A stretch of 64,000 nt of DNA from Clostridia bacterium. GTDB lineage: Bacteria; Bacillota; Clostridia; TANB77; CAG-508. Shown here piece after piece: positions 33,981 through 59,970 of this stretch. The position numbers and the translations under genes were made by a program. The notes under the pieces were generated by a model that was not told the DNA's origin, ran no database searches, and saw only the letters and a program-made list of their open reading frames with translations. The stretch spans positions 11,119 through 75,118 of the forward strand of contig JAFWNC010000008.1 of assembly GCA_017510525.1 (NCBI GenBank), read 5' to 3'. Every line of letters begins with the position of its first letter. The stretch's first letter is position 1.

Positions 33981-34013
33981 GTAGGGGCGACGTTAGCGTT
34001 GCCCGATTTTTTT
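33981..34013 (+). terminator. REP-like GC hairpin plus T7 (terminator of minC)
   Basis: gtaggggcgacgttagcgttgcccgattttttt. Confidence 0.6.
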
Positions 34014-34115
34014 GACTTTTGGGGACGCGGGTGGAAATGGGGACGGTTCTCTTTTCCAAGGAAAACTTGGAAAAGAGAACCGTCCCCATTTCCACCCGCG
34101 TCCCCAAAAGTCAAA
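34011..34115. repeat. perfect 105-bp hairpin palindrome (50-bp arms, 5-nt loop)
   Basis: tttgacttttggggacgcgggtggaaatggggacggttctcttttccaag | gaaaa | exact reverse complement. Verified base by base. Confidence 0.9.
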
Positions 34116-34117
34116 AG

Positions 34118-34465
34118 TCATAGGTCTATTAGGTTTGTTAGGTCTAGGTCTAGGAGGATTAGGATTATTGCTATGTATAAATACCAATCTGTGCAGTTTT
34201 CGAAGAATAGGAATAGTAGTATTCCGTAGAGGATTAGGTCGTCGAGTTGTAGGGGAATGTTGAAATGCGACATTATGGTGTTTAGTGTGGTGTTGCGGGA
34301 ATCGGGGGTTTCAATTTGATTTTCGCCAATTTGGGGTTGTAGGGGCATATTGCTAATAGTGCCCCCTACGGTATTGGGTGGGATGTTTTTGGGTTGTGGT
34401 GGCCATGGGTTATTGGTTCTGTATTCATATGGGCTATAGGGCGGGTATATTGTGTTGTATGGCAT
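34118..34465 (-). CDS. small Pro/Tyr-rich protein (MPYNTIYPPYSPYEYRTNNPWPPQP...), possible spore-coat-like; doubtful gene
   Basis: ATG overlaps the stop of the upstream gene (TAATG). A REP-like element (34339-34369) is translated in-frame. Confidence 0.35.
   Translation of the reverse strand: MPYNTIYPPYSPYEYRTNNPWPPQPKNIPPNTVGGTISNMPLQPQIGENQIETPDSRNTTLNTIMSHFNIPLQLDDLILYGILLFLFFENCTDWYLYIAIILILLDLDLTNLIDL
34339..34369. repeat. REP-like element
   Basis: gtaggggcatattgctaatagtgccccctac. Confidence 0.65.
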
Positions 34466-34800
34466 TATTTATCACCGCCTTGTTTTTGTAGTGTTTTGAA
34501 TATTTTTATGTATCTTAAGATTTGAGAGTATTGGTCTATTTTGTTTCTTCTGCTTTCGCGCATGTATGGTTTTAGTGCTTGGAGTAGGTTTGAGTTGTTT
34601 TCGCTTGTATTGTTTGAATCTAGAATTGTTTTTATTTTCATTATTGTGTTTATGTCTATGTTGTCAAAGATATTGTTGGAGCTTGTATTTGTTTCGGTTG
34701 TTTGGGTTGAGGAATCTGGTTTATTGCCGAATAGTGTGGTTGGGTCGATGTTTTTTTCTTTTAAGATTTCTGAGAATTTGTTTAATAAGTCGTCGTTCAT
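34465..34800 (-). CDS. hypothetical small protein, 111 aa (MNDDLLNKFSEILKEKNIDPTTLFG...)
   Basis: GGAGGAAT RBS. Hydrophilic and Asn/Ser-rich. The +strand ORFs covering the same DNA are hydrophobic read-throughs. Confidence 0.5.
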   Translation of the reverse strand: MNDDLLNKFSEILKEKNIDPTTLFGNKPDSSTQTTETNTSSNNIFDNIDINTIMKIKTILDSNNTSENNSNLLQALKPYMRESRRNKIDQYSQILRYIKIFKTLQKQGGDK

Positions 34801-34816
34801 GGATTCCTCCTTTTTT

Positions 34817-34914
34817 ATTGGGTATGCTTTCGTAGAATGGACGAGCAATGCTCGCCCCTACAATATTGGGTATGGCGTTGTAGAATGGGTACATTGCTAA
34901 TAGTGCCCTACTAT
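34817..34914. repeat. tandem pair of REP-like units
   Basis: ttgggtatgctttcgtagaatgg-ACGAGCAATGCTCG-cccctaca, then ttgggtatggcgttgtagaatgg-GTACATTGCTAATAGTGC-cctacta. Confidence 0.6.
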
Positions 34915-35061
34915 TTATGGTTTGTTTTTTAGGTCTTTGAGGATGTTTTCGGGGTTTTGGTTGTTTAATACTTGCTTGGCTTTGTTGATTCCTTGTTCTA
35001 GTTCTTGTTTATCCATTTTAGATAACATATCAAGCAGGGTATTTATATCTTTATTATTCAT
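34915..35061 (-). CDS. small protein, 48 aa (MNNKDINTLLDMLSKMDKQELEQGINKAKQVLNNQNPENILKDLKNKP)
   Basis: Hand-translated. AAAGGAG RBS. Below the ORF-track cutoff. Confidence 0.4.
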   Translation of the reverse strand: MNNKDINTLLDMLSKMDKQELEQGINKAKQVLNNQNPENILKDLKNKP

Positions 35062-35357
35062 TTGGTTTCATCTCCTTTGTTTTAGTATATGATTTGAGTT
35101 ATTTTATATGCGTGTCTAAAAAATTATAATTAAAAGTATTGATATTTTAATATCTCATAAAAAAAATTGTCTATATGTTTTTACAATTTGTCTTTTTGGG
35201 TAAACAATATTCTATATTATGTAACTTTAAAATAGATTTTTAAAATTATTCTACAAAAAATTTAATCTAAATGTAATATTCGACAAAATTCAGTATTTTC
35301 CGTAAAATCAGAGATTACAAGGAAAACTAAAAATTACTTATATAAAAAAAAGTGACA

Positions 35358-35385
35358 TTGACAGGTTTTTAAAAGTATTTAAAAT
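35358..35385 (+). promoter_or_regulatory. putative promoter TTGACA-16-TAAAAT for the first giant operon
   Basis: ttgaca 35358-35363. Confidence 0.35.
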
Positions 35386-35435
35386 AAAAATTAAAATAAA
35401 GGCAGAATATTTTTATTGTGAGAATGTTCAAAGAA

Positions 35436-35457
35436 ATGGAGTACTTAAGTTCTCCAT
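35436..35457. repeat. family-2 palindromic element
   Basis: atggagtacttaagttctccat, sited between the putative promoter and the RBS of the 35483 gene (operator-like position). Confidence 0.55.
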
Positions 35458-35482
35458 ATTAAGAAATTTTGGAGGTAGAGAA

Positions 35483-38400
35483 ATGCAAAAGAATAGGAGT
35501 ATAAGAGAGAAAATCACAGCTAGTGTTTTAGTTATATGTTTGCTTATGTCATATTTGGCTACATTTAGTAGTATCTATGTAACTTATGCTAGTGATGAAA
35601 AAGCTGAAGTTGTTTTCAAGGCTGAAATTGTTGATTTGAATAGTGAAAATTCAAATGAACAATCTGAAAATAATGAAAACACTGAAGAAACAGAGAATAA
35701 TGAAGAGCTGGAGAATCAGGTTGAAACTGAAGAACAAGATGAAAATAGTTCAAATCAAGAAGCTGAGGTTAACCTACAAACTAACACCCCTGAATCAGAA
35801 GAAAAACCTGGAAGTAGGTTTGTTCTTAAGATTAAGGTTGGTGTTAAAAATAATGGTTATTTGAAAAACGGCAAGATTGAAATCTCTGATCTTGAAAACC
35901 AAATTTTCTCTATTTCTGAATTCTCTAATCCTATAGTTCAATCTATCTCTGATGGAGTTATAAAACTTAAAACAATAGATGCAAAAGAAGAATATGAAAT
36001 CGAAATACCTCTTGAATTAAAGAAAAATGCTGATGTTTCAGCAAATTCTATAGAAAACGGAACAAAGATAAAACTAACTGGAATATATGTTGACGAACAA
36101 GCTGTTGAAGAAAAAGTTGAAAGGGAACAAACTGTTTTCGTTGAGGTTGAAAACGAAAGAAAAATCGAAATAGGAAGCAACATTGAAAAATTTATTAAAT
36201 ATACTCAAGATAGTAAAGAATATGCGTTAATCCAAGTAAAGGTTGAAATTCAAGATACAGCTGAAAACCTTATATTACCTGTTAAATCAACTGATTTAGC
36301 AATCAAACTTCCTGAAATAACTGTTGAGGAAGGTAAGGAAAAGCCAGAGATTGAAAAAGTTTTAGTTGTTGCAAAAAATACTGGTTTCACAAATGGTAAA
36401 TTAGGTTCAGATGTTAAGTTTACTGAGGATAATTATAGTGTAAACAATGATGGAAAACTTAATATACATGTTGAAAATAAGGCTGAAGATGGAAAATACA
36501 AACAAACAAATGGAAAAGATGAATATTTAATAGAGCTAACTTATAATAATGCAGAAAATATTCAAACACAGTCTGCAAAAGGCAAAATTGAAGCTACTAT
36601 TAGTTTATTTGACAAGAAATCTACAAAAGATGTAAATAGTGTTTTAGAACAAGAATACAAATTTGATGAAGCTTCTACAAATAAGGTTACATATGATGTT
36701 CGAACTCTTACAGAAAAAATAAGTAAAGGAAATATATATGCTAACATAAACAAAGAAGATAACTACTATGAAACAGAATATAAAAATGAGGTTTCATTTA
36801 ATATTTCAAGAGCCAATAGTATAAAAACAATTGAAATTAGAGAATATGATGAAAGTTATTATATTGAAGATGGTAGTAAATATTCTACAAAAACTGATGT
36901 TGGGCTAGATACTTATTACAAAACATCAACCTTTAATAAAGAAAACTTAGTTAATATAATTGGCGAAAACGGTAGTTTAGAAATACTAAACGAGGAGGGA
37001 GATAGCTTAATTACTATTAATAAAGATACACAAGCTAATGAAGAAGGAAATATTGTTTATCCTTATAATAACAAAATCGAAAAAATCGTTGTAAGGGTTA
37101 ATAATCCTGAAAAAGAGGGAATTTTAAATATTCAAAATACAAAAGCAATTGAAAAGAGTAATTATACTAAAGAATCTTTAGTTCAATTTAAAGGAATTGC
37201 TAATTCATATAATGCAGCTGCTTTATATGATGAGGATATCAAGTCTGAGCTTGGTATTAAAGAAATTAAAACAGAAATGGTTGGAACAAAAACTAGAGCA
37301 GACATGGAGATTTCAAGGGGAACTTTAAGTACTATTGTTAAAAATGAAGATGTTGAGTTTGATATTTGTTTAAACAATTCAAAAGATTCAAGCGATATGT
37401 ATATTAATCCTGAATTTGAAATTACTCTTCCAGCTGGTGTTACAACGGCTACTATTAAAGATATCAACGTTTTATACGGAAATAATGAGCTTATAAAGTC
37501 AGAAGAGTCAAGAACTGGTTTGAATGATAACAATCAAGTTGTAATTTATGTAAAACTTGATGGTGTTCAAAAGAATTATAGTATTGGTGATACTGAAAGA
37601 GGAACAACTATTGTTGTTAAAACTGATATTGAATTAGATAGATATTTATCTAATAGAGAAGCTCCAGTTGAACTTAGATATAGAAATGAAAATGCTACAG
37701 AATATGGTTCTGAGGTTGTTGACGGTGTTGCAAAAGAAACACTAAATTTCAAATTTCAGGGCGGATTTGGTGTTGTAGCAAGCCAAAGAATAAGCGGATA
37801 TAATGCTGATAATTATGTAATGTCTATGAACCAAGGTGAGCAAATAGCTTCTATTTCTGATGTTGAAACTTCAAAACAAGCTGAAATGGAGATTGCTTTA
37901 ATTAATAATAATGAAGAGATTATGGAAAACCCTATTATATTAGGAAGAATTCCTTTTGATGGTGTTACTTCAATTAGTAGTTCAGAGAGCTTGGGAGCAA
38001 ATGTAAATACAAAAATGACTAGCGGAATAGAGAAAATTGTTGGAAAAGATGTTAAAGTATATTATTCAGAAAATGGTGAAGCAACAAAAGAATTAGATAA
38101 AGCTGAAAATGGATGGAGAGAAGATATTGGCGATTTACAAAAGGTTAAATCATATTTAATAGTTGTTGATGGAAATATTGAGATTGGTGAAAGTTTAGCT
38201 TTAAAATATGGTTTTGAAATTCCTGAAAACTTAGGAAAAAATGCTAGTATTTTCGGAACTTTTGGAGTTTACTATGATACTGAAATTGGAACAAAATTAG
38301 TTGAGGCTAATAAAGTTGGTCTTGAAACTGAAAAGGAAGAAATTCAAGAATCAGAGGAAACAGTATCTTTATTTAGTGTTAGAGCAGTACGTTACGGAAC

Positions 38401-40351
38401 AAATATAGCAGGAAATGGGGCTTCATCAGGAACAGAAAATAATGAATCATCAGATGAAATAACAAATATATTAGAAGATGTTATTTATGAAAGACCAAGA
38501 TATGAAGCACCAATTGATGCAGATCCAATACAAATACAATTTGAAAACGAAAGTGAAAGCTCGGTAATAATTAAAGGTGGAACAATTGAATATAATGTTT
38601 CAGTTAGAAATATGAAAACAAATCCAATAGAAGATGTTGGTGTAACAATAACTCTTCCACAGGGTTTAACATATATTGACTCAAATTCTAAAAATGAAAA
38701 TGATATAAATACAAATGGAAGTTATAATACATCAAACAGAACAGTAAGTTTCAATTTTAATTCAATAGATAAATATGAATATATAACATTGAAATTTAGT
38801 GTAGATAGTGAAATATCTGCAAATGAAGTTCAGATAACAACAAATGTACAATCTGATGATATTGATAAAGAATATAATAATACTAAACAATATACTGTTA
38901 AACAAGGAGAATTTGAAGCAAGTTATAGTAATTTGTCAGGAAATAATTATATTAAATCAGGTGAAGAAATAAAATATAAATTAACTCTTGTAAATGTATC
39001 AGGTGAAACTGTATCAGATATTACAGTTGAATCAGACTTCCCAGACGAATTAAGCTTACAAAGCGTTGAATTTGTAAAAGGTGATTATAAAACAGAAGGA
39101 TATATAACAAATAATTCATTTGTTATATCACAATATTTATTACCTAATGAATCTTTTGAAATTATTATAACAGCTGAAGCTGGAAATATAAGTGCTTCAG
39201 AAAAACAAGTAAGTAATTATTTAACAGTTACAACAGATAAGAAAACATATAGAACAGAATCTGTTGAAACTATAATTCAACAATCATCTGAAACATCAAA
39301 TGGATCAGAAGGTGGTTCAGATTATAGAGAAAATAGTAATGGCGGTATTAATATAGATACAGCTGGAGAGTATAAAATAACAGGAACAGCTTGGATTGAC
39401 AAAAATATGAATGGTTCAAGAGATTCAAGTGAAAAAGGTTTAGAAGGGATAGTAGTAAAATTATTTAATGCAAATACAAATCAATTAGTAGATAAAACAA
39501 CAACAGATGGAGCTGGAGGCTATATCTTTACAGGTTTATCACAGGGTAATTATTATATTATATTTGAATATGATGGAGAAACATATTCTTTAACAGATTA
39601 CCAAAAATCTGGAGTATCTGGTGACAAAAATTCAGATGCAATTTTATCAAATGGAGAAACTAGAACAGATACTATAGTAATAAATGATAGAAGTATTAGT
39701 AATATTGATATAGGACTAATTCAAGGAAATGTATTTGATCTAACATTAGAAAAAACAGTATCTAAAATAACTGTTCAAAATGATAATGGAACAAAGGTTA
39801 TTGATGGTAATGATTCATCACTTGCAAAAGTTGAAATAAAAGCAAAAGATTTGGCATCTTCAACTGTATATATTGAATATAAAATAAAAGTTACAAATAA
39901 TGGACAAATTCCAGGAATAGTTCAAAAAATTGTTGATTATCTTCCTAAAGATACTAATTTAAATACTGAGATAAATCCAAATTGGTATATTGGAAATGAT
40001 GGATATGCTTATAATGAACAACTTTCAGGAACTGTAATTAATCCTAAAGAAACAAAGGAAATAAGTTTAATAATATCAAAAGATATAACCGAAAATAATA
40101 CTGGATTAACTTCAAATAAAGCTGAAATAGCATTAGCATCAAATGAGTTAGGAATACAAGATATAGATTCATCTCCAGGAAATTCAAATTCTACAGAAGA
40201 TGATATGGGACAAGCAGATGTAATCATCTCAATAAGCACTGGTGGAGGGCTAATAAGCGCTTCAATCCTTATTACGGTTCTGATTAATCTATTACTCATT
40301 GGCTATGTAATAAAAAGAAAAATTGATAGAGATAGAGAGGTGATATTATAA
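35483..40351 (+). CDS. giant secreted surface protein A (1622 aa)
   Basis: Signal peptide, acidic low-complexity stretch, DUF11-type repeats (TLVNVSGETVSDITVESDFPDELS), a CnaB/SdrD-B-like domain (ITGTAWIDKNMNGSRD...GNYYIIFEYDGETY). C-terminus ...DIDSSPGNSNSTEDDMGQADVIISISTGGG, then a TM segment, then KRKIDRDRE. Confidence 0.8.
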   Translation: MQKNRSIREKITASVLVICLLMSYLATFSSIYVTYASDEKAEVVFKAEIVDLNSENSNEQSENNENTEETENNEELENQVETEEQDENSSNQEAEVNLQTNTPESEEKPGSRFVLKIKVGVKNNGYLKNGKIEISDLENQIFSISEFSNPIVQSISDGVIKLKTIDAKEEYEIEIPLELKKNADVSANSIENGTKIKLTGIYVDEQAVEEKVEREQTVFVEVENERKIEIGSNIEKFIKYTQDSKEYALIQVKVEIQDTAENLILPVKSTDLAIKLPEITVEEGKEKPEIEKVLVVAKNTGFTNGKLGSDVKFTEDNYSVNNDGKLNIHVENKAEDGKYKQTNGKDEYLIELTYNNAENIQTQSAKGKIEATISLFDKKSTKDVNSVLEQEYKFDEASTNKVTYDVRTLTEKISKGNIYANINKEDNYYETEYKNEVSFNISRANSIKTIEIREYDESYYIEDGSKYSTKTDVGLDTYYKTSTFNKENLVNIIGENGSLEILNEEGDSLITINKDTQANEEGNIVYPYNNKIEKIVVRVNNPEKEGILNIQNTKAIEKSNYTKESLVQFKGIANSYNAAALYDEDIKSELGIKEIKTEMVGTKTRADMEISRGTLSTIVKNEDVEFDICLNNSKDSSDMYINPEFEITLPAGVTTATIKDINVLYGNNELIKSEESRTGLNDNNQVVIYVKLDGVQKNYSIGDTERGTTIVVKTDIELDRYLSNREAPVELRYRNENATEYGSEVVDGVAKETLNFKFQGGFGVVASQRISGYNADNYVMSMNQGEQIASISDVETSKQAEMEIALINNNEEIMENPIILGRIPFDGVTSISSSESLGANVNTKMTSGIEKIVGKDVKVYYSENGEATKELDKAENGWREDIGDLQKVKSYLIVVDGNIEIGESLALKYGFEIPENLGKNASIFGTFGVYYDTEIGTKLVEANKVGLETEKEEIQESEETVSLFSVRAVRYGTNIAGNGASSGTENNESSDEITNILEDVIYERPRYEAPIDADPIQIQFENESESSVIIKGGTIEYNVSVRNMKTNPIEDVGVTITLPQGLTYIDSNSKNENDINTNGSYNTSNRTVSFNFNSIDKYEYITLKFSVDSEISANEVQITTNVQSDDIDKEYNNTKQYTVKQGEFEASYSNLSGNNYIKSGEEIKYKLTLVNVSGETVSDITVESDFPDELSLQSVEFVKGDYKTEGYITNNSFVISQYLLPNESFEIIITAEAGNISASEKQVSNYLTVTTDKKTYRTESVETIIQQSSETSNGSEGGSDYRENSNGGINIDTAGEYKITGTAWIDKNMNGSRDSSEKGLEGIVVKLFNANTNQLVDKTTTDGAGGYIFTGLSQGNYYIIFEYDGETYSLTDYQKSGVSGDKNSDAILSNGETRTDTIVINDRSISNIDIGLIQGNVFDLTLEKTVSKITVQNDNGTKVIDGNDSSLAKVEIKAKDLASSTVYIEYKIKVTNNGQIPGIVQKIVDYLPKDTNLNTEINPNWYIGNDGYAYNEQLSGTVINPKETKEISLIISKDITENNTGLTSNKAEIALASNELGIQDIDSSPGNSNSTEDDMGQADVIISISTGGGLISASILITVLINLLLIGYVIKRKIDRDREVIL

Positions 40352-43300
40352 TGAATAGTAAAAGAATTGCAAGTTTATTAATCATAATAATCTTATTCAT
40401 GTTAATGTTACCTGAAATAACTATCGCAGCTGAAAATACAGGAAGTTGGGTTGATTTGATAGATGATGATGATAATGAAACAGTATATAGTTTTATAGAT
40501 TATTCAAAATCATGTGGATTTAGAGCATATGATACATATAATGGTAATACTTCGTTTTATAATTTTATACCAAATTATGTTCCAGCTGGTGTATACAGTG
40601 ATAATAGTTATAAGCCATTTTATAGACTTTTATCTTCTTCTAAGATAGGTACTAATGGAAGACCTTTTAGCAGAAAAACATATGTAAAAAATGATAGTGT
40701 AAATAAACCAAGTTTTACAGAAAGGTATATTATTTATAAAGCAAATGAAAGTAAAAATGAAAGCGGTGAAAAAAATAGGAGAACTAGCTATTTAGCTGCG
40801 CAAAATGCATGGTTTAAACTAAAAGGTAATAAAATAAAATTAGATGATGAAGCACAGGATATTTTAGATGAAGCTTTTGAGTATAATACATGGGCTAAAT
40901 CTGTTGAAAGTGAATTAAAAGCTACAACTGGAAAAACAATAGATAATGCAACTGATGAAGAATTAAATGAAGCTTTAGGTGACGATTTTTATTTTGATGC
41001 ATCAAATAGTACTATATCTGTTGTGAATGATGATGATGGAAAAGGAGATTATATTCTCGTATCAAACATAAAAACAAATGGAAGAGATTCGTTTACACAT
41101 AAATCAAAGAAAAATGATCCTGATGATTGTACATTTAGTTTAAGTCCTAGAATTACTAATATAAAAATAACATTTTATAAGAATAATAATAAGAATGATA
41201 CTATGTCTCCTATAGAAGGAAAATATAAGAAAGGAGCTACAAAGTGTAGTTCTGATGGAGAAGTAACAGGTCTATTCTATGAAGGAGGTACAGATACAGG
41301 TATTACTTTAGAATTTCAAGAAATAGAAGACCATATAAGTAAATCTCAGACACGTTGTCAAACAACTTCAACTGCAATTTGTGAAATAAGTGGAAAAAAC
41401 CATTTCATTTTACAAGAAGATTCAAATGATAAGGGACCAGGTTATTATCCTTTTCCATTTGCAAAAGAGAAATTCAATTTAAAAATACCAGCTGATTTTA
41501 TAAAAGAGAATAATATTACTGGAATAAGTGAAATTAATATTGGAGTAAAAACGGAAAAAAGAGAAGTTGGATTGTTAAAGGTAAAATATGATGAAATAGT
41601 TTTAGATGATAAAAATAGTAGCATTAACAATAAAAATGATGGAACTGGTCTAAAAAGAAGTCAATTAGACGATTATACATTTATTTCACAAATTACAACA
41701 AATTCAGCTCTTGGGCTAGAAACGGAAACACCAAATGTAATAACAACAAATACATTGCTTGCAATGCCTGAAAAAACGTTAGATGAATATGAACAAATTG
41801 CAAAAATAGACCAACCAATTTTATTAGCAGATGCTTCAAATACATCATCACAAACTTCAGAAACAGAAGTTGAAGAAGAAGAATATAAAGTTAAAAAATA
41901 TAACTCAACAAGTTATCGTTTCTTAGAAACTGTAGCTGATCCTGTAGGAACAAATGATATACAAGTATCTAAGTTAAAAACAGAAGATGGATATAAATAT
42001 TACCAATTTACAAAAGGTGATAGCATAGTATATGGAAAACTAGAGGAATCAAGTAAAACAATAAACTTCTATACAAATAACTTAAGATATGGAAGTTCAA
42101 TAGATATAGGAACTTGTTTTGGAATAGGTGCAGGTCAAATGAAACTTACTGGTGATTCAACTTCAACAACACAAACAATACAAGCAACAGAAGGTGTAAA
42201 AGCTGTTACAAATGCTTCAACCAATATACAATTAAGAGTAACAGATTTAAAATTAACAGCAAATAAAAACAAAACAATAATAACAGCTGAATTAGGTGGA
42301 AATGATAAATATTTAGAGATATTTGGAAATAAAGTAACATGGGGCTCTAAAACATATACAGCAACAGTAAGTGGTAAGAAAATGACTATAGAAGTTAATA
42401 CAGAAGATATATTATCATCATCTGATATGAGGCTTGAAGTTGAATATGGAATAATAGATGGAACGCTTAGAAATCAAGGATTCAGGTTTACAGAATATCA
42501 GAAAACAGGACTAAAAAAATACATAACATTATCAGTACCAAATGAATTAGCAAATACACTAGAAAAGAAATTTGCTGCAACCGTAAATGATGATATAGAA
42601 ACAACAATGAGTAAAAGCGTAAATGGAATAAATTATCTAGTTAGAACAAAAGGAAATCAATTAGCATTTTTAAAACCTAGAGAGATTGCTGAAGAAACTG
42701 AATTGAGAACAAGTGAAGATGGAAGTGGTACATCATATATTGCTCAAACAGGAAATGTTTTATTTGGTTTAAGATTTAGTGATTCATCAAGTGGATATTA
42801 TATTTCATCAACAGATTCAATTACTGCAAATAAAAGTTTATCTGTTTTTGAAACAATTAAATTTGAAAACAAAGGATATAATTTAAAATTATCATCTCAG
42901 GATTTAACTCAAAACCCTGTTCTTGACATTGAATTAAGGTATACTGTAAAAGATTCAAACGATTCATCAGTATCAGCAAATATAGTTCAATATATACGAA
43001 TAGAAACAACAGGAAAATACACTGAAGTTCCAACAGAAGAGAGCGTTTTAGGAAAAGGAACAATTGCCGGAAACTTACAAACTTTAGTAGATGGTTCACT
43101 AACATATAAAGAAGTATTAGAAGAATCATTATTATTAAATACTCAATTAACATCATTATTTACTGGATGGGCAAATTTAATTAATAGTTCAGATTATCAA
43201 GAATATACACAAGAAAATTCAGTAAGAACAAATACAATAAACAGTGAAGAAGATGGAAATCCTGCTTTAAAAGTATTTACAACAGATGGACTTTTAACAG

Positions 43301-49504: not shown

Positions 49505-49535
49505 AAGGCAAAGGGACTGACCCTTTGCCTTTTCG
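49505..49535 (+). terminator. intrinsic terminator of the A-B operon
   Basis: aaggcaaagggactgaccctttgcctt followed by ttcgg. Confidence 0.6.
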
Positions 49536-49540
49536 GCTTG

Positions 49541-49592
49541 GTAGGGGCGACCATTGGTCGTCCGAGGACGGGGGTGGAACCCCGCCCCTACA
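49541..49592. repeat. composite REP-like element
   Basis: gtaggggcgaccattggtcgtccgaggacgggggtggaaccccgcccctaca. Confidence 0.7.
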
Positions 49593-49602: not shown

Positions 49603-49651
49603 TGGGGACGCGCACCAAATCAAACATTGGGCGGGGACAAGCCCAACCCCA
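49603..49651. repeat. REP-like element (degenerate)
   Basis: ggggacgcgcaccaaatcaaacattgggcggggacaagcccaacccc. Confidence 0.5.
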
Positions 49652-49740: not shown

Positions 49741-49769
49741 TTGAAAATTTCCAAATAAAGGTGTATAAT
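49741..49769 (+). promoter_or_regulatory. putative promoter TTGAAA-17-(TG)TATAAT for the second giant operon
   Basis: ttgaaa 49741-49746, tgtataat 49762-49769. Confidence 0.4.
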
Positions 49770-52900: not shown

Positions 52901-54803
52901 AACATTAGAATCTGAAGTTATAACAACAACTATTGAAAAAGGTGAGATTATAACTGAAGAATTTACAGAGACTATAGCTGATATAGTACAAGAAAACGAT
53001 GATATTATTTACAAAATAGCTGTAAAGAATACATCTGATAAAGATATTTCAAATATTAAAGTCGAAAAAGACTTACCAGATTTATTAAAATATAGTGAAA
53101 GCTATGTTCAAGATTTTGATGAAGAATTAAACTTAATAGAAAATACAGCTGATAGTAACTATGATATGGATAATAGAAAAGTAACATGGACTATTGATAA
53201 TATTAAAGCTGGAACAACAAGATATGTTGTATTAAAAGCAGTAGCTGGAGAATTAACTGGTGATGTTTATGAAGATACAATTACTACAAATTCAAAAGTA
53301 ACAGCAAATTCAAATACATACTATACAGCTGATGTAAATGAGAAAATTGCTAGACCTAAATTAGTTGTAGAGCAAATTTCTAATAAAAATGGTGAATTTA
53401 TTGGTGAAGGTGAAATAGTTGAATATACAATAAAAGTTAAAAATGAAGGTATTGTTCAAGCTGAACAAGTTGAAGTAACTGATAATTTACCTAATGAATT
53501 AAAAGTTAGATCTTTAAAATATAAAGTTGATGGAACTGAATTGTCAAGAACAGTATCTAAAAATGAAGACGCTGTTGTGTATACAAGTTTAGCTCCACAA
53601 AGTGAAGTAGTAATTAACTTATCTGCTGTTGCTAATACAATAGATCAAACTCAAAAATCTGTATCTAATGTTGCTACAATAGATACGGCAAATGCAAATA
53701 GTGCAACAACAAATAAAGTAAATAATACTATTGAAAGAACAATAGAAGCTCAAACAGCTGGTAATAACGAATCAGAAAATATTTATAAAATAACTGGTCT
53801 AGCATTTGTTGATACAAATCAAAATGGACAAAAAGATGAAAATGAAGCTGGATTAGAAGGAATTGAAGCAGTTTTGGTTGATGTAAACAGCTTAAACAAG
53901 ATTCAAACAGTTGCTACAGGTGCAAATGGAGAATATTCATTTAGTAATTTATCAAACGGAAATTATTATGTAATATTCTACCATAATTCAACAAGATATG
54001 ATTTAGCAACATATAGAAAAGAAAATGTACCTGAAAATCTAAATTCAAATGTTATTTCTGCTGAAATAGAAGAAAATGGAGAAAAGAGAACAGTTGCTGT
54101 TACAGATGCATTAACTATTTCAAATGGAAGTATTTCAAATATTAATATAGGTTTAACAGATACAAAGATATTTGATTTATCACTAGAAAAAACTATTTCA
54201 AGTATCACAGTTCAAAATGAAAATGGAACAAAGAAAAATGAATATAATAACTTAGGCTTAGCCAAAGTTGAAATTGCACCTAAAGATTTAGCTGATACTA
54301 AAGTATATGTTGAATATAAGATAACAGTTAAAAATGAAGGTGATGTTGAAGGATATGCTAAGAAAATAGTAGATTACTTACCAGCTGGAATGGAATTTAG
54401 TACAGAACTTAATAAAAACTGGTATCAAGGAACAGACGGAAAACTATATAGTGAAGAATTAGCTAATACAGTAATAGAAAAAGGACAATCTGCTACAATT
54501 ACATTAATTCTTTCAAAACAAATGACTGAAGAAAATACAGGTATTGTAACAAATACAGCTGAAATAGTAGAAAGTTATAATAAATTAGGATTAGCTGATA
54601 AAGATTCAAGTCCAAATAATAAAGCTCAAAATGAGGATGACTTAGGAAGAGCTGATGCTATCCTATCAATCAATACAGGTAGTACATTAATTTATATAAC
54701 AGCAATTGTTACTACAATAATGATGGCGATCATATTATTTATAGTAATAAGGATGAATAGGTACAAGATAAAATGGTACTTACAAAAAAAGGAGGTGAAT
54801 TAA
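49905..54803 (+). CDS. giant secreted surface protein C (1632 aa), paralogue of A
   Basis: Signal peptide, DUF11-type repeats, CnaB-like ITGLAFVDTNQNGQKDENEAGLEGIEAVLVD...GNYYVIFYHNSTRYD. C-terminal region aligns with A. Ends ...DKDSSPNNKAQNEDDLGRADAILSINTGST, then a TM segment, then RMNRYKIKWYLQKK. Confidence 0.8.
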   Translation: MLKNRRSTKKVLALFLVFTIMFANMFTVVEYAASNLGKLDSSDIHENVEYDAKLVVNEEEKGYENAFDMNEENAGIKLELNVEDSGYLKNASISFESENGLNFEIGKIAENDLVQNLENNKLKLNQINEGDSLEITVPIKFKNTDSIDNLSKVVSAKLSGIYVDNSGKENKISETVNLKVTWNVNTELTVSSEITKYIPYSSSNGSGVIVQTNVKMNMGQKAELVGKEKLEIEALKIQGLKLDKVTVIRNNEADFSEKDWKQSDDKITIDIKNDNSKEFVKEEFLITYIFTGTDTNVLPLSLNSKILATVEMFGSNEKIETEKEELYTVSEKIGEIVSISSELSEEVLNKGNIIADKYNEAKAYTTNYEINHRINISSTDLVEKISITDIDENFKAGENSYSTVNSSLYKKVKVSKDEFEKILGTDGKISVMSRGEEIATITKDSKVEDGSYVAEIAKEVSRVTVNTTAPKTEGNLNIKLSKEIKDTEYELSDIKAWDLMEYTAQGSITLTGDTQNKVADMQKSIKLENTKTDTNISLNKTSLGTIVNNENVEIKVSLNNDKIGTDFYKNPKFEITLPEYIQEVDFKDVGIANGGEDFKISKAEANVEDGRVVIRIELEGTQKSYPLNNVTDGTNIIINTNMRLKLLTPSKEDIITLKYINEDATEYLDNGYEEVKISYVAPTGVISVNSTSNYNGDNSKVISVNQGTKTDKIEIFDNAKTATMDILVMNNNENTTKDVKILGRIPFKGVKDVRTGEELGTTVDTTMTSQIIANQENNANVIIYYSENGEATADLTDMNNGWRTDITDFSKVKSYLIVTDNYEMNKGDILRFFYEYTIPENLEHNNYIYGTFGTIYKDVSEIAENQEISTPDLVGLTTGKGPNISVTTKLSTGKDSIKESEKVKYTAEVKNTGEEDARDVVVKTELPEGTTFVEYQKQGSIYEAKGWKYIDGRESIEKFDTIKPGETKVIEFTVEANSVSNEITTVDWKTEITAKDLAKTLESEVITTTIEKGEIITEEFTETIADIVQENDDIIYKIAVKNTSDKDISNIKVEKDLPDLLKYSESYVQDFDEELNLIENTADSNYDMDNRKVTWTIDNIKAGTTRYVVLKAVAGELTGDVYEDTITTNSKVTANSNTYYTADVNEKIARPKLVVEQISNKNGEFIGEGEIVEYTIKVKNEGIVQAEQVEVTDNLPNELKVRSLKYKVDGTELSRTVSKNEDAVVYTSLAPQSEVVINLSAVANTIDQTQKSVSNVATIDTANANSATTNKVNNTIERTIEAQTAGNNESENIYKITGLAFVDTNQNGQKDENEAGLEGIEAVLVDVNSLNKIQTVATGANGEYSFSNLSNGNYYVIFYHNSTRYDLATYRKENVPENLNSNVISAEIEENGEKRTVAVTDALTISNGSISNINIGLTDTKIFDLSLEKTISSITVQNENGTKKNEYNNLGLAKVEIAPKDLADTKVYVEYKITVKNEGDVEGYAKKIVDYLPAGMEFSTELNKNWYQGTDGKLYSEELANTVIEKGQSATITLILSKQMTEENTGIVTNTAEIVESYNKLGLADKDSSPNNKAQNEDDLGRADAILSINTGSTLIYITAIVTTIMMAIILFIVIRMNRYKIKWYLQKKEVN

Positions 54804-54804: not shown

Positions 54805-57800
54805 ATGAATCGTAAAAAAATCTTTATAGAAATTTTAATATTTATATTAATTACCGCCTTAGCAGCTATTGGGTATAACGTAACTGCTGCAATAACAACA
54901 GAAATGGCTTCAAAGGGAATTGGATACCCTTCAGGATATCCAACAATAACATTAAGTGATTTAATTAATAATTATAATTTACTATGTTCTGAAGAAGGTA
55001 GAGCTCTTCCAGGAAGTTCAGCAACTACGGTTGTATCTGGAAAAAGATCAAAAGACATACCTTATCCAAGTTATGGACAAGTTGCATTTACTACAGGTGA
55101 AACAAAAAGTTCAAGAAATCCTTTTTCATACGCAGAAAGTGAAACATTAAGTAGATATAAAACAAGTGGACCTGTTACAGCAGTTCCAGAAGAAGCATAC
55201 ATTTTATCTGAAATGACTGAAAACACAAATGGAAATACAGGAGTATTCTATAATGTAACAGATGTAAGATATGAAGGTGAAATTATTGATTCTTATGCAA
55301 TACCAGTAAGAGATGAATCAGATTATATCTATGGTGTTGATTTAGATTCAAATGGAGAACCTACAGCTTATGTTGTAAAAGAAGAAAGTGATTATTATTA
55401 TGTTGATATTAATCAAGTAGGAAGTGATTATTTCCCATACACATATGTACAACAAGCTTGGTGGAGCAGTCCTGCTGGAAGTACAGGTAATCCAGTTACA
55501 CAAAACGATTTCTCAGTTGAAGCAAAAGAATTTGATAAATATATTAAGAGTGTAAGAAAAGGAACTGATACAGTTGATAAAACTGTAACAGTTAATGGAA
55601 CAACAGTAACAGTTCCAGCTCCAATAATTGATTACCAAGTTACATCAACAATGAACAATGCAACAGTAAACTATAATGAAGAAACAAGAAAATACTTAAT
55701 TGGACCATTTACACTTAATTTCCCAGAATGGGTAACAACATCTACAGATAGAGGAGAAGTAAGATTTGCTGGAATTTCTAATATGGATTTAAAAGGAATT
55801 CAAGTAAATGGATCTAGTTCTCAAGAGATTACAATAGATCATTCAAATTGGGATATACAATATTCAAATGTTAGAGAGGAATCAGGTGCATTATCTGAAT
55901 ATCCTCATGATGGAGAAGAATTCTATATTGTATTAGATTATATTGAAGGCGTTACAAAAATTAGTGATATTAAAGTAGATTTTAAATATATGAATGCAGG
56001 TGCTACTTATGAGAATTTAACTGGTAAATATAACATTGTATCATGGACACCAAAAACAGAAGTAGTATCAGATGGAGAATGGCCAATATATATTCATACA
56101 TTAGAATGTACAGCCATTGATAGTAAAACTTCACAAAAATTAGCATTAGGTGTTGAGGCTGCTAGATGGTATGAACATGCGGATTATTCATTATTTAATG
56201 GCGATTTGGTTGTTAAAGATGAACCAATACCAACACCAACACCAGTAATTACACCAAACCCTATTACACCAACACCAGGACGTACAATTCCACCATATAC
56301 AGCAGATGATGACGACGATGATGATTATAGTAGAAAGAAGAAAAAAGTAATAGAACTTACAATTCCTATTGAAGGTGAAGTTTGGATTGATACAAAACAA
56401 GATAAAGCTAATGGAAATGTAACTGAAGGTAAACGTGATGACGGTGAAAAAGGTTACAAAAATGCGGAAGTTTATGTATATAAAGTATATAAAAACAATG
56501 GAACAGAAGTAAAAAGGGAACTTGCTAAGATATATGAAAAAGATAATGATAAAGAATTATCATTCCCAATTTACACAGATGAGAATGGTAAATATACAAT
56601 TCCTAAAATCTTAGTTCCTGGTACTGAGGATAAGAATAATAAATATGATATCGAATATGATGTAGTATTTAAATTTGATGGTCAAACATATACAGCTTCA
56701 AATCCATTACCAACAGCTAATGGCGATGCTAAAACTTATATAAATGCTAGCAGAGCAGAAAAAGATAGTAAATATGCAAGCGATTCTCTAGCTAGTGAAA
56801 ATGCAACAGAAAGAGATACTTATAATAAGAAATTCGAAACTATCACTGGTGATAAGGCAATGGATGATAGTGGTAATACAGAAGGAAAAGCTGGAAACTT
56901 AAAATTAGATTATACATCTGAAGCAGTTACATATAAAGATAATACAAAGAGAAGATCTAAATTAACTACTTTAGATTCAAATGGACATATAATAGAACAA
57001 TATAAGATGATAGCTTCTACAGCTAATACTGGAATTTATGTTCCTGTAAATCATGAAATTACTAAGGATAATGCTGATAGTGTAACATCAACAGTTGATA
57101 AACATGGTAATAAAACAACTACAACATATCATACAATCTATAATTACATGAAACACATTAACTTAGCTGTTAAAGAAAGAGAAGAATCTGATTTAGGTGT
57201 ACTTAAAGATCTATATAAAGCTAAAATAGTTGTTAATGAAAAAGAAATTACTAAGAAATTCAATACTTTAGTAGATTTTGAAGACGCTAAATATGCTGAA
57301 TTCTTAAATATTCAATTAGAGAATGCTCAAACAAAATCTTATAAATTAGGATTATATAATTCAGATTATGAATATAGATCAACAGTTTATGAGAAAGAAG
57401 TTGACCAAGTTAAAGCTGTTAAAACTGGTGAAACTGGATCACTTACAGATACAAACTTACGTGTATTCTTAACATATAAGATTGCAGTATTTAACGAAGG
57501 TTCTTATGATATGGTTATTAATGATTTAAATGATTACTATGATAAGACATTTACATTAGTAACAGAAGAACAAAAAGCAAATATTGTAGATGGAGATACA
57601 AGAACAGCCAAAGTTGTTGCAGAACCTTCTTACTATAGAGTTATAGGATCTACTGAAAGTCCAAAATATGATTATACTTCAAATGGAATGACTAGATTTG
57701 ATTGGGCTTCATCAGAGGCTACAGCAAATGATAGTTACAAGAAAGGTAACATCACATCATTCAGTGGATTAAAATTACATCCAGGTGAGCAATTACAATT

Positions 57801-59880
57801 ATTCGTAACTTATGAAGTTGATAAAGGTGGAGCAGAAAATCCAACAAGAAACTTATTAGGTGAAAAGAATAATGTAGCTGAAATTGCAAGTTACTCAAGT
57901 TATAACTTAGATGGAAGTGTAGCTGGTAAAATCGATAGAGATTCAGCTCCAAATAATATTAAGTTAGATAAAGTAACTGATAAAGCTTGGTATGAAGATG
58001 ATACAGAATCTGCACCAGCTATTAAGATTGAACTTACAGACTTTGTAAACAGAGAAATAAATGGTGTTGTTTGGGAAGATAAAGAAACTAATACAATTAA
58101 GTTTGACCAAAAAGTAGCTAATGGTTACTTAGATGATGATGAAACTAGAATTCCAGATGTTGATGTAGAATTAGTTGAAAAGATTACAGTTGACGGAAAA
58201 GAATATGAACACATTTGGAAAAATGAAGATATTAAGAATTTCAAAGATGTAAATCCTGAAAATTATGAATTAGATGTAACTACAAATGATGATGGTGAAT
58301 ATACATTCAAAGGTGTTCTTGCTGGTAACTATGTAGTAAGATTTAAATATGGTAATAAAGATTCACTTGCTAAATATAATGGACAAGATTACAAAAATAC
58401 AGCTTATGAAGCAGGATTAACAGATTTAAATCAAGAATGGCAAGATATTAAATCAGATGCAGAAGTAAATAATAGAGATAGAAGAGTATCAGATGCTAGA
58501 GATTATGAACCACAAAGAATGAGAGTTATAGCATATTCTAAGACAATTGATAATAACAAGGGTACAATATTAGAAAGTGCTGATAATGGAGCAGATCATA
58601 GTGAATTAATTAAGAATACTCAAATGGTTGCTAATACAGCTAAATTAAACTTAGAGATTGAACATCCTGATTATATTACAGAGAACAAATTAACTGATGG
58701 TACTGTTGAAAGAAAATATGTTGTAAACGGAATTGACTTCGGTTTAGAGCAAAGATCTGAAACAGCTATTGAGTTAAGCAAGAATATTTCTAAGATTACA
58801 TTAATGAAGAATGACGGAATAGATACAATCATGGAAGTAATTATTAATGAAGATGGATCAATTGATTTTGAAAAATCAATTCAAGGTGATAAACTAATCA
58901 ATATAGCTCAAGTTGGAAATACTCAGGGTATTAGATTTGCTAATATTGAAAAATCATACTTAAATAATATGTCAATTAGTTTAGAGTATACAATTAAAGC
59001 TAAAAATACTTCTGAAGTTGACTGGACAGGTGATATTGCTGATTTAGCAACAAGTGAAATCTCAGCAAAAGCTGATGAATTAGCAGATACTTATGATATC
59101 CCTGGTGGAGTTACTTATGGTAGATATGTAGGTAATAACTACTATACAAATACAAATAATAATTCTGATAGAATTGTTAAGACAAATGTAAATCAAATAA
59201 TTGATTACATTGATAATGATATTGGAATGGACGTTAAAGCAAACCAAAATGTTGAAAACCATGCTTGGAAAAATGTTAAAGCAGATGAATTAAGAAGAGT
59301 TCTAGCTGATAGCGTATATAATACAGAAGGTAAGATCGTTGACAATAAAGGAATATCTTTCGAAGGAAATGGTAAATCTAATATAGTTGTAACAGAAGAC
59401 GGAAACTATAATCCAGATGTAGTTGCTGAGTTAGTTCCTACAAGTGCAGCAAGTGAAGGAAAAACAACAGGAAGAATTAAGATTACAACATCTAAGACAA
59501 CATCATCAGATGCTGATTCAAGTGATTTGAACTTCAACAATATGGTTGAAATCTTAAGTTACTCTAATACAGTAGGTAGAAGAGATATGAATGCAGTTCC
59601 TGGTAACGCAGAAATTTCTAGAGGTGCTTATGAAGCAGCAACAGGATATAAGAACAATACTCTAATTGCTGACTATGAAGGTGCTAAAGAAATAAACGGA
59701 CAACATCTAAACGGTGAGAGAGATACAGCTGCTGCAGACTTATTAACATTCACTGAACCTACAGGTTTAGATGTACAAGAAGAAACTACAACAAATTATA
59801 TGGTTGCAATTCTAAGTGCTTCAATAGTAATTGCTGCAGGAATAATGGTTACAATGTTATTTGTATTCAAAAGAAAATAA
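54805..59880 (+). CDS. giant secreted surface protein D (1691 aa), paralogue of B
   Basis: Starts 1 nt after the C stop. Signal peptide. N-terminal domain with LLCSEEG and YVQQAWW (matches the thioester Gln motif hydrophobic-Q-[DENQ]-hydrophobic-hydrophobic-W). PT-rich linker plus DDDDDDD. CnaB-like GVVWEDKETN...GNYVVRFKYGNKD. C-terminus ...LTFTEPTGLD, then 12 polar residues, a TM segment, and KRK. Confidence 0.8.
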   Translation: MNRKKIFIEILIFILITALAAIGYNVTAAITTEMASKGIGYPSGYPTITLSDLINNYNLLCSEEGRALPGSSATTVVSGKRSKDIPYPSYGQVAFTTGETKSSRNPFSYAESETLSRYKTSGPVTAVPEEAYILSEMTENTNGNTGVFYNVTDVRYEGEIIDSYAIPVRDESDYIYGVDLDSNGEPTAYVVKEESDYYYVDINQVGSDYFPYTYVQQAWWSSPAGSTGNPVTQNDFSVEAKEFDKYIKSVRKGTDTVDKTVTVNGTTVTVPAPIIDYQVTSTMNNATVNYNEETRKYLIGPFTLNFPEWVTTSTDRGEVRFAGISNMDLKGIQVNGSSSQEITIDHSNWDIQYSNVREESGALSEYPHDGEEFYIVLDYIEGVTKISDIKVDFKYMNAGATYENLTGKYNIVSWTPKTEVVSDGEWPIYIHTLECTAIDSKTSQKLALGVEAARWYEHADYSLFNGDLVVKDEPIPTPTPVITPNPITPTPGRTIPPYTADDDDDDDYSRKKKKVIELTIPIEGEVWIDTKQDKANGNVTEGKRDDGEKGYKNAEVYVYKVYKNNGTEVKRELAKIYEKDNDKELSFPIYTDENGKYTIPKILVPGTEDKNNKYDIEYDVVFKFDGQTYTASNPLPTANGDAKTYINASRAEKDSKYASDSLASENATERDTYNKKFETITGDKAMDDSGNTEGKAGNLKLDYTSEAVTYKDNTKRRSKLTTLDSNGHIIEQYKMIASTANTGIYVPVNHEITKDNADSVTSTVDKHGNKTTTTYHTIYNYMKHINLAVKEREESDLGVLKDLYKAKIVVNEKEITKKFNTLVDFEDAKYAEFLNIQLENAQTKSYKLGLYNSDYEYRSTVYEKEVDQVKAVKTGETGSLTDTNLRVFLTYKIAVFNEGSYDMVINDLNDYYDKTFTLVTEEQKANIVDGDTRTAKVVAEPSYYRVIGSTESPKYDYTSNGMTRFDWASSEATANDSYKKGNITSFSGLKLHPGEQLQLFVTYEVDKGGAENPTRNLLGEKNNVAEIASYSSYNLDGSVAGKIDRDSAPNNIKLDKVTDKAWYEDDTESAPAIKIELTDFVNREINGVVWEDKETNTIKFDQKVANGYLDDDETRIPDVDVELVEKITVDGKEYEHIWKNEDIKNFKDVNPENYELDVTTNDDGEYTFKGVLAGNYVVRFKYGNKDSLAKYNGQDYKNTAYEAGLTDLNQEWQDIKSDAEVNNRDRRVSDARDYEPQRMRVIAYSKTIDNNKGTILESADNGADHSELIKNTQMVANTAKLNLEIEHPDYITENKLTDGTVERKYVVNGIDFGLEQRSETAIELSKNISKITLMKNDGIDTIMEVIINEDGSIDFEKSIQGDKLINIAQVGNTQGIRFANIEKSYLNNMSISLEYTIKAKNTSEVDWTGDIADLATSEISAKADELADTYDIPGGVTYGRYVGNNYYTNTNNNSDRIVKTNVNQIIDYIDNDIGMDVKANQNVENHAWKNVKADELRRVLADSVYNTEGKIVDNKGISFEGNGKSNIVVTEDGNYNPDVVAELVPTSAASEGKTTGRIKITTSKTTSSDADSSDLNFNNMVEILSYSNTVGRRDMNAVPGNAEISRGAYEAATGYKNNTLIADYEGAKEINGQHLNGERDTAAADLLTFTEPTGLDVQEETTTNYMVAILSASIVIAAGIMVTMLFVFKRK

Positions 59881-59892
59881 CAATCCTATAAT

Positions 59893-59943
59893 ATAGAAAA
59901 GAAAAGGCGCACGTCAATATGCCAGACGAGCGTCTTTTCTTTT
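59893..59943. terminator. putative A/T-flanked hairpin after the C-D operon
   Basis: gaaaagaaaaggcgcacgtcaatatgccagacgagcgtcttttctttt. Confidence 0.35.
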
Positions 59944-59970
59944 AAATTAATAAATGGAATAGAGAAATCT

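Follow-up and report, generated by a model that had tools for sequence, protein, structure and literature searches.

We analysed a 64,000-nucleotide stretch of a Clostridia bacterium genome (assembly GCA_017510525.1, contig JAFWNC010000008.1; hereafter the window), in which two tandem two-gene cassettes, A-B and C-D, span 24 kb between minC and hslO. Each cassette would make two giant Sec-exported cell-surface proteins, the first (A or C) a stalk and the second (B or D) an adhesin consisting of a variable head on a conserved core of about 1,200 residues. We consider it likely, with a probability of roughly 60%, that the two proteins of a cassette are made in equal amounts, that both project from the surface and probably act together, and that the D-type heads bind their ligands covalently. 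A first-pass annotation, made from the letters of the window without database searches, had proposed an uncharacterised cell-surface adhesion or fibre system, and this is supported by the domain content and C-terminal tails of the four proteins. The host is a sporulating member of the Clostridia, with SpoIIR and SpoIIE encoded in the window (Pfam/NCBIfam scan), and the G+C content is about 29% across the window.

The 4 open reading frames (ORFs) match the coordinates that the first-pass annotation had given (Table 1). The TAA of A and the ATG of B share 1 nucleotide (nt; TAATG), with a GAGAGGTGA Shine-Dalgarno sequence lying inside A, while a single nucleotide separates the stop of C from the ATG of D, with a AGGAGGTGA Shine-Dalgarno sequence inside C. 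The overlap or 1-nt gap reported within each pair is thus seen at both junctions, and together with the ribosome-binding sites inside the upstream genes it argues for the translational coupling that had been proposed. Equimolar production of the paired proteins would be expected, and the promoter candidates before A and C point to vegetative, sigma-A-dependent expression.

This arrangement is not peculiar to the window. An A/C-type gene directly precedes a B/D-type gene in about 80 of the 87 loci, the second start falling between -4 and +6 nt from the first stop (+1 nt in 33 loci, -4 in 15, +5 in 12, and +4 in 8). Pairs are found in the order rpsR-PBP-ksgA-pair-GH94 in human-gut species, in tandem arrays of at least 3 pairs, and in a distant form that has a VWA domain in its adhesin and keeps the tight junction. 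Conservation of the pairing across several genomic contexts indicates that the pair is a conserved bicistronic module, consistent with the earlier description of a duplicated two-protein unit, in which a putative adhesin comes after a DUF11/CnaB-repeat protein (by the domains found here, DUF11/SdrD-B). In a distribution scan limited to one genome per species, 107 stretches matched, of which 77 loci from 59 assemblies were kept. The carriers are at least 59 species-representative assemblies, all of them metagenome-assembled genomes (MAGs) of uncultured gut Clostridia, with hosts that include rabbit, Hadza and other humans, deer, sheep, and mouse; 3 are labelled Candidatus Scatovivens, and some genomes have 2 to 3 loci or tandem pairs. 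D-type proteins are rare in a collection of 5.8 billion proteins, where the only source name found was "hypothetical protein". In one relative, whose D is 67% identical, the C-type gene is split into ORFs of 365 and 1221 amino acids (aa) (locus L007, 5035-9999), which may be a frameshift, a pseudogene, or an assembly error.

A contains a signal peptide, a family-specific region of about 1000 aa, CLIPPER/DUF11 repeats (1032-1253), an SdrD_B domain (1300-1412), and an Ig-like domain ending in DIDSSPGN..EDD..AD, followed by SISTG, a transmembrane helix, and a KRK tail. C has 4 CLIPPER/DUF11 stretches, an SdrD_B domain (1298-1387), SINTG, a transmembrane helix, and a basic tail, and is without cysteine. 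PF01345 (CLIPPER, formerly DUF11) scores 39 bits in A and 91.9 bits in C against a cut-off of 24.6, TIGR01451 39 and 87.9 bits (cut-off 24), and PF17210 (SdrD_B) 63 and 52.2 bits (cut-off 29.7), in agreement with the DUF11-repeat protein of about 1600 aa that the first gene had been taken to encode. C additionally matches the PDB SdrD chains 10ps_A (E 2.8e-12) and 4jdz (E 2.6e-8), as well as the B domain of UafA. The two proteins are 36% identical over their C-terminal ~600 aa (BLASTP), and their N-terminal 1000 aa are homologous too (phmmer E 5e-89), so that the likeness noticed between A and C extends over their full length. The N-terminal ~900-1000 aa of both are family-specific and have no Pfam match; a word-index search with the N-terminal 880 aa of C returned 7 matches, missed close relatives, and was uninformative. 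No adhesive tip domain was found in A or C by Pfam or PDB sequence search. Both proteins are long, acidic, Cys-poor, and beta-rich, and they share a motif, DxDSxPxN..EDD..AD, that is related to a motif in the B/D core. CLIPPER domains are CnaA-like and mostly isopeptide-crosslinked. CLIPPER has been described as a stalk domain of fibrillar adhesins in which an isopeptide bond was shown by crystallography, although not every DUF11 domain has one (PMC12617251). We therefore expect A and C to be stalks, built from the family-specific beta-rich region, the CLIPPER/DUF11 domains, a calcium-type SdrD-B domain, and a terminal Ig-like domain.

B and D are 30% identical between residues 1794-3042 of B and 476-1691 of D. 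The resemblance claimed for them holds over this core of about 1,200 aa, and their N-terminal heads are unrelated. In B, a signal peptide and a fast-evolving N-terminal part of about 1790 aa precede the core, which is followed by TPPTG, a transmembrane helix, and a basic tail; D consists of a signal peptide, a head (~30-470), a Pro/Asp-rich linker, the core (~520-1640), TEPTG, a transmembrane helix, and KRK. Pfam matched nothing in B, and its CarboxypepD_reg/SpaA matches in D, the only ones, stayed below threshold; NCBIfam gave none in either, and PDB sequence searches with parts of B and D returned no chain. An AlphaFold2 model of D 501-1691, made from a 24-sequence alignment (mean pLDDT 77), is almost entirely beta. 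Its best Foldseek matches in the PDB are BcpA (E 2.3e-8), EbpB, RrgB, PilB, T6, SpaD, SpaA, and C. perfringens CppA, with E values for the pilin matches of 2e-8 to 1e-4 and TM scores that are low because the query is multidomain. On the basis of these matches to the model, the conserved core of B and D is a predicted chain of CnaA/CnaB-type pilin-like domains, in which the motifs IDRDSxPxN...EDDxxxAP and NTxGRRDxxAxPGNA recur. This architecture, at the sizes given in Table 1, supports the earlier designation of the second gene as a putative adhesin of 1700-3000 aa.

The head of D contains 3 conserved motifs. In the B/D family, [LF]C[CS]xxGxxLP and YxYVQxAWW are present in 81 of 87 members and SQxLAxxxxxARWYE in about 58 of 87. 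The first corresponds in D to 59-LLCSEE-64, whose C61 does not vary among D-type proteins and, across 40 diverse heads, is conserved to at least 90%. The second is 215-VQQAWW-220, in which Q216, A218, and W219 are invariant in the 40 heads and the first residue is V, not T. The third, 443-SQKLA-447, carries Q444, also invariant in D-type proteins, and most members without the Cys head lack this motif as well. Thioester domains (TEDs) are characterised by [YFL]C-Phi-zeta on a strand, TQxx-Phi-W on a helix, and Phi-Q-zeta-Phi-Phi on a strand (PMC4450167, PMC6194298), and the motifs of the D head correspond to these in order and in predicted secondary structure. In an AlphaFold2 model of D 1-500 (pLDDT 79.6, pTM 0.74), C61 ends strand 59-61, QQAWW lies in helix 214-220, and a long hairpin after a beta-sandwich carries Q444 at its tip, an arrangement as in class II TEDs; the best PDB fold match of the head is the class II EfmTIE86-TED. 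The presence of all 3 TED motifs predicts covalent ligand binding, and by analogy with TIE proteins and the pilus-tip adhesin Cpa we propose that D and most of the family would bind their ligands through a thioester-type head. An exhaustive search with the head profile found only 193 cluster representatives among 1.84 billion proteins. Distant matches share the sandwich/hairpin part alone, those without the Cys motif mostly also lack the Gln motif, and the other heads seen are papain-like plus lectin, or VWA. VWA is the other classic pilus-tip adhesin module.

The head of B is of another kind. B 1-1790 (window 40351-45720) has no Pfam or PDB sequence match and no internal repeats by BLASTP, and it contains 13 cysteines, compared with 2 in A, 2 in D, and 0 in C. 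A phmmer search with residues 1-600 matched B itself and no other family member, and the D-type head profile did not match B (E 2.6). Over 400 aligned aa the head of B is only 28.5% identical to that of a relative (locus L100; hereafter the 84% relative) whose D is 84% identical to that of the window, which suggests that the B head is a fast-evolving tip. TED motifs were considered in B as well (SCGF, AAQNAWF) and rejected, since there is no match to the head profile or to the family and since the first 200 residues read of the head of B in the 84% relative contain no Cys.

All 4 proteins have, as read from their translations, a signal-peptide-like N-terminus and a hydrophobic helix followed by a basic C-terminus, as the first-pass annotation had noticed. 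In A/C-type proteins a motif with the consensus [GST][VI][KQ]TG (most commonly TVKTG, GVKTG, GIQTG, and SVKTG) precedes the helix in 75 of 77 distinct tails, with a spacing of 1-5 residues between the G and the helix, and a basic residue follows the helix in 75 of 77. B/D-type tails have the consensus [ST][PE]PTG (TPPTG in 23, SEPTG in 16, TEPTG in 13, and SPPTG in 10), which precedes the helix in 79 of 82 distinct tails at a spacing of 9-13 residues, and a basic residue follows in 78 of 82. This layout resembles that of a cell-wall sorting signal, and the tripartite tails suggest that both proteins are held at the cell surface. Anchoring may be by the helix itself, or may follow cleavage between T and G by a clostridial-type sortase encoded elsewhere. 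SrtB of C. difficile recognises (S/P)PXTG and cuts between T and G (PMC4155245). The tails were compared with the SrtB substrate pattern, in which (S/P)PXTG stands 17-45 residues before the C-terminus and a hydrophobic domain and 2 or more basic residues come after it: the hydrophobic and basic parts are present in 4 of 4 window proteins, and the exact (S/P)PXTG is found only in relatives with SPPTG (10 of 79). NCBIfam and Pfam models of sorting signals or anchors match none of the 4 proteins. A six-frame motif scan found no ORF in the window with the sortase signature TLxTC, and no sortase, pilus-assembly, or secretion gene is among the ORFs outside the block that were scanned with Pfam/NCBIfam. 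Within the block itself, the same Pfam/NCBIfam and TLxTC scans likewise bear out the earlier statement that none is present.

Several observations weigh against the interpretation of the cassettes as co-acting stalk and covalently binding adhesin. The one line of evidence for a physical association of the paired proteins is the tight pairing of their genes, and the near-universal conservation of the cassettes at one place next to genes for cell shape and division is not what accessory adhesins usually show. Pfam TED matches 0 of 40 diverse heads even at E up to 10 and 0 of 7 distant relatives with canonical-looking Cys motifs, and hhalign gives a probability of only 4% for the head alignment against a 7-sequence class II TED alignment, which we assembled from plasmid homologues, pLS20-type proteins. 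The head of B is unlike that of D, and its counterpart in the 84% relative is without Cys in the part read, so the thioester idea does not apply to the A-B pair. None of the window motifs (TPPTG, TEPTG, SISTG, and SINTG) is an exact fit to (S/P)PXTG, and NVQTG of C. difficile CbpA, a proposed motif, was not cleaved by SrtB in vitro (PMC4155245). Finally, no ORF with the TLxTC signature occurs in 1.93 Mb around the ~90 related loci, plasmid reference loci excluded. Membership of the D head in the TED family by sequence was rejected, with Pfam, hhalign (against TIE-pLS20 alone and against the 7-member alignment), and PDB sequence and profile searches all negative. We thus call the head TED-like rather than filing it as a TED, and lean towards its containing a genuine thioester.

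Among other explanations, the best supported, which we nevertheless regard as unlikely, is that the cassettes build a sortase-assembled pilus or wall-linked fibre, with B/D as the tip adhesin, A/C as the shaft or base, and a sortase encoded elsewhere that cuts between T and G and joins the proteins to each other or to peptidoglycan. The modelled B/D core folds like major and basal pilins, the family has TED-like or VWA heads as do the tip adhesins Cpa and RrgA, both families end in tripartite ..TG/hydrophobic/basic tails, and SPPTG and TPPTG resemble the clostridial (S/P)PXTG. Pilus operons, however, usually carry their own class C sortase, and the TLxTC search around the related loci found no candidate. 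The proteins are also 4-8 times the length of a pilin and have no pilin match in Pfam or NCBIfam, to add to the missing anchor and sorting-signal matches (the pilin-motif lysine was not searched for), and the motif's first Pro varies among B/D tails (TEPTG, SEPTG) and does not occur in A/C. We are doubtful, too, of a bolder form of our own interpretation, in which stalk and thioester-type adhesin would form a clade-specific two-component heteromeric fibre in equal amounts, the paired non-LPXTG tails would be new sorting signals with a dedicated processing or anchoring step, and the fixed location of the genes next to mreCD-PBP2-minC would mirror insertion where the wall grows or the cell divides.

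It is improbable that the members of a pair are 2 unrelated fibrillar adhesins that are merely co-transcribed, each acting alone and paired by operon inheritance. Each protein does have its own signal peptide, stalk domains, and anchor, and their association is a deduction from gene pairing. Against this, adjacency and the -4 to +6 nt junction have been kept over about 80 loci, 2 old subfamilies, and many contexts, and the junction survives replacement of the head by VWA; uncoupled gene pairs are seldom so tight. More improbable again would be a structure of the spore surface such as an exosporium or appendage, with cassettes and small neighbouring genes expressed during sporulation. The organism sporulates, other species have the pair between minC and spoIIE, and of the 3 small genes next to A (described below) s115 encodes a Pro/Tyr-rich protein, as some coat proteins are, and s48 matches YlbD_coat faintly (E 0.015). 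That match is far below the Pfam cut-off, however, and the promoter-like sites before A and C fit sigma-A at 11 of 12 positions, Sec signal peptides with C-terminal membrane or wall anchors typify vegetative surface proteins, and C-D-type pairs occur in unrelated contexts such as that between ksgA and GH94.

The surroundings of the cassettes were compared among relatives. The order B-C-D-hslO-...-gatCAB is the same in relatives whose D is 99%, 84%, and 67% identical, and the 84% relative also has radC-mreB-mreC-mreD-PBP2-minC, small genes, and then A and B. A locus from a further species (L008, Lapin-008 bin86) reads mreC-mreD-PBP2-minC-(small gene)-A-like-B-like-spoIIE-WG-repeat-ACPS, and in 5 more species minC is followed by homologues of s127/s48 and then by a pair; MinC identity is 50-66% in at least 6 species with minC, small genes, and an A/B-type pair. 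The series spoIIE-(metK)-WG-repeat-412-aa protein-ACPS lies 25 kb upstream of minC in the window (5819-13103) and directly 3' of the pair in L008 (18454-24205). By this comparison of gene order, the neighbourhood has been rearranged while the pair was kept beside minC. A groups with a minC-linked subfamily (L009, L035, L069, L072, and others) and C with a subfamily linked to ksgA/GH94 (L002, L016, and others). A recent tandem duplication was rejected, since A and C belong to different old subfamilies whose nearest relatives are at separate loci elsewhere; from their grouping, A-B and C-D appear as old paralogues that were brought side by side in this lineage.

The absence of minD-minE-rodA after minC, to which the first-pass annotation drew attention, is confirmed here. 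minC is also without minD/minE after it in L008, L035, L069, L070, L076, L086, and L100, and from this distribution their absence is a lineage trait, not an insertion scar. MinC normally requires MinD; with no minD beside minC, either minD is elsewhere or the clade uses MinC differently. The first-pass annotation had also held that finding the same 4 genes at this position in close relatives, with domains that are only generic Ig-like repeats, would reduce the block to ordinary lineage-specific surface proteins. The genes are indeed at this position in relatives. As for the domains, most are of the generic stalk-type Ig-like kind, but the Cys/Gln-motif head of D and the unusual conserved C-terminal motifs are not, so this half of the statement applies only in part.

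G+C content is 0.27-0.31 in the block and 0.27-0.33 outside it, with similar GC skew. The suggestion that the block is a recently acquired island that displaced minD/minE, to which the missing minD, minE, and rodA and the striking palindrome and small orphan genes at the left border would lend themselves, is not upheld and seems extremely improbable, since composition and skew equal those of the flanks, relatives as distant as 67% identity in D and 50% in MinC have the same genes at this site, the palindrome is confined to this species, the 84% relative having the same genes without it, and no integrase, transposase, tRNA flank, or direct-repeat border was noticed (the Pfam-scanned ORFs hold no mobility genes; no dedicated search for mobility genes or tRNAs was made). 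Judged by gene order and composition, the block is a long-resident feature of the lineage.

The palindrome itself is perfect, as had been noted, although its length is 107 bp instead of the 105 bp given. It is G+C-rich, lies between minC and the small-gene operon, which converge on it, and has a predicted fold of -121.5 kcal/mol (z = -16). A 26-mer from it is unique within the window, and its decamer TGGGGACGCG recurs at 49603. An assembly of this species from a second sample (L088) has the palindrome letter for letter. A further contig of the species (L089, 1-92) breaks inside it, where the right arm meets 53 nt of G+C-rich, unrelated sequence, which suggests that assemblers break or mis-join at this palindrome, known to us from assemblies. 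None of the first 87 loci retrieved contains it (no locus among them is both from this species and covers the position), nor do JGI metagenomes and IMG/VR, and the 84% relative has only an 11-mer in common with it. A repeat family or mobile element was rejected on account of the unique 26-mer and of its absence from the 87 loci, JGI metagenomes, and IMG/VR, as was a simple fold-back of the assembly, since the arms have different unique flanks. The palindrome is probably a species-specific local inverted duplication, at most a bidirectional terminator, and not a border.

The 3 small minus-strand genes that had been reported beyond the palindrome are real in the sense that homologues occur in the same order in relatives. 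The 84% relative encodes proteins of 49, 109, and 104 aa there, with the same order and the same stop/start overlap, and homologues of s127/s48 adjoin minC in 6 species (L008, L035, L069, L070, L076, and L086). Apart from the faint match of s48 mentioned above, none of these small ORFs has a Pfam family. A search with s127 returned only lineage-specific hypothetical proteins. s115 is without annotation in the NCBI record, as judged from locus-tag numbering, and is 41% identical, in its hydrophobic C-terminal part, to the 104-aa protein at the same place in the 84% relative.

Table 1. Genes and sequence features of the minC-hslO region and its flanks (window coordinates)
Feature	Position	Strand	Description	Basis
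radC, mreC, mreD, PBP2			upstream flank	NCBIfam
minC	33309-33974		upstream flank	NCBIfam
Terminator of minC (intrinsic)	33985-34013	+	GGGCGACG-TTAG-CGTTGCCC, then T run; starts with recurrent GTAGGGGC motif	
Perfect palindrome	34010-34116		arms 34010-34060 and 34066-34116, 51 nt each, 100% complementary; loop 5 nt; 107 bp	
s115	34118-34465	-	N-terminus Pro/Tyr-rich, C-terminus hydrophobic; last gene of small-gene operon	
s127	34465-34848	-	111 aa if start is 34800 (probable start); soluble; lineage-restricted; stop overlaps s115 start	
s48	34915-35061	-	48 aa; first gene of small-gene operon; divergent from A	
Sigma-A-like promoter candidate, A-B operon	35358-35385	+	TTGACA-16-TAAAAT, 11/12 positions	consensus match alone
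A	35483-40351	+	1622 aa	ORF call
B	40351-49500	+	3049 aa	ORF call
Symmetric G+C-rich hairpin directly 3' of B	49505-49531		further GTAGGGGC-type hairpins at 49541-49591	
Sigma-A-like promoter candidate, C-D operon	49741-49769	+	TTGAAA-17-TATAAT, 11/12 positions	consensus match alone
C	49905-54803	+	1632 aa	ORF call
D	54805-59880	+	1691 aa	ORF call
hslO	60061-60930		downstream flank	NCBIfam
TSCPD protein, 219-aa ORF without assignment, gatC			downstream flank	NCBIfam
GTAGGGGC sites	2515, 8491, 20743, 23598/23618, 26032/26074, 29015, 33981, 34339, 34854, 49541/49584, 59971, 60927, 61260			

The hairpin directly 3' of B is probably the terminator of the A-B operon. The octamer GTAGGGGC has 16 copies in the window against 0.18 expected, nearly all of them just 3' of genes and often as inverted pairs (GTAGGGGCG...CGCCCCTAC), and many post-gene G+C-rich hairpins of the form GTAGGGGC...GCCCCTAC are found in the genome. 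This looks like a family of G+C-rich terminators, similar to repetitive extragenic palindromes, in a genome of 29% G+C.

Three further features of this genome were noticed. A 998-aa fusion (window 2596-5592) combines a UTP-glucose-1-phosphate uridylyltransferase domain with a full set of phosphoglucomutase/phosphomannomutase domains. No mreB was found between radC and mreC (29788-29823) in this species, in the window or in L088, and a 340-aa mreB is present at that site in the 84% relative (13222-14244). In another locus of the same species (L001, 24519-25082), about 9.4 kb past the stop of D and outside the window, a giant gene of 9,562 aa begins downstream of gatCAB, LemA, and G5-domain genes, which suggests that the genome invests in several very large surface-type proteins.

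The cassettes recur, one to several per genome, in at least 59 species of low-GC gut Clostridia from humans, rabbits, ruminants, and mice. From their size and recurrence, they are probably a main route of contact with mucus, food particles, or other cells, and an adhesive role in the gut is what we would predict. Pfam has no family for the B/D core and head, nor is any relative of theirs solved; a definition of both would close a gap in how gut metagenomes are annotated. If the D head holds a true thioester, covalent adhesion chemistry would extend to a divergent family that current models miss, and this would interest developers of protein-ligation tools as well. The paired architecture and its 2 kinds of ..TG tail offer a concrete case for studying how giant adhesins are anchored in Clostridia without LPXTG-type signals.

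Of the known systems, TIE proteins (BaTIE, EfmTIE86, CpTIE, SfbI, and TIE-pLS20) are comparable to D in having a head with a Cys motif, a TQxx-Phi-W helix, and a Gln motif, and to B/D in their CnaA/CnaB-type Ig-like stalk, their motif-hydrophobic-basic tail, and their role as surface adhesins, which is here a prediction. They differ in that the D head gives no Pfam TED or profile-profile match and is about 440 aa long, compared with about 250-280 aa for class II TEDs, and in that the B/D family proteins reach 1,700-3,500 aa, end in [ST][PE]PTG rather than LPXTG, and are always encoded right after a second giant protein; B, moreover, lacks the 3 motifs. CLIPPER/SdrD-type fibrillar adhesins (PMC12617251; S. 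aureus SdrD) are matched by A/C in their 2-4 CLIPPER stretches and single SdrD_B domain, and in being long, acidic, Cys-poor, and beta-rich with a signal peptide and a C-terminal anchor. Unlike these adhesins, A/C have no tip adhesive domain by Pfam or PDB sequence search, a family-specific N-terminus, a tail of xxxTG and then a transmembrane helix in place of LPXTG, and an obligate B/D-type partner.

Sortase-assembled pili (Cpa/RrgA/SpaC with a shaft pilin and a class C sortase) have in common with the cassettes a pilin-like core, as predicted for B/D, TED-like or VWA heads, and 2 co-transcribed structural genes, whereas the cassettes have no linked sortase, several-fold larger subunits without pilin or sorting-signal matches, the order stalk and then adhesin, and a long stalk on each protein. 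The C. difficile SrtB substrates (CD2831, CD3392, and CbpA with NVQTG) share the non-LPXTG ..TG, hydrophobic helix, and basic residues; SPPTG is found in 10 distinct B/D tails and G[VI]QTG of A/C resembles NVQTG, but the commonest B/D motifs (TPPTG, SEPTG, and TEPTG) and the window motifs miss an exact (S/P)PXTG. The CLIPPER and SdrD-B stalks, the pilin-like folds, and the TIE-like layout are thus of known kinds, and what is new is the strict two-gene pairing, core and head families in B/D that have no annotation, non-LPXTG tails that come in pairs, and a distribution confined to one uncultured gut clade yet ubiquitous within it.

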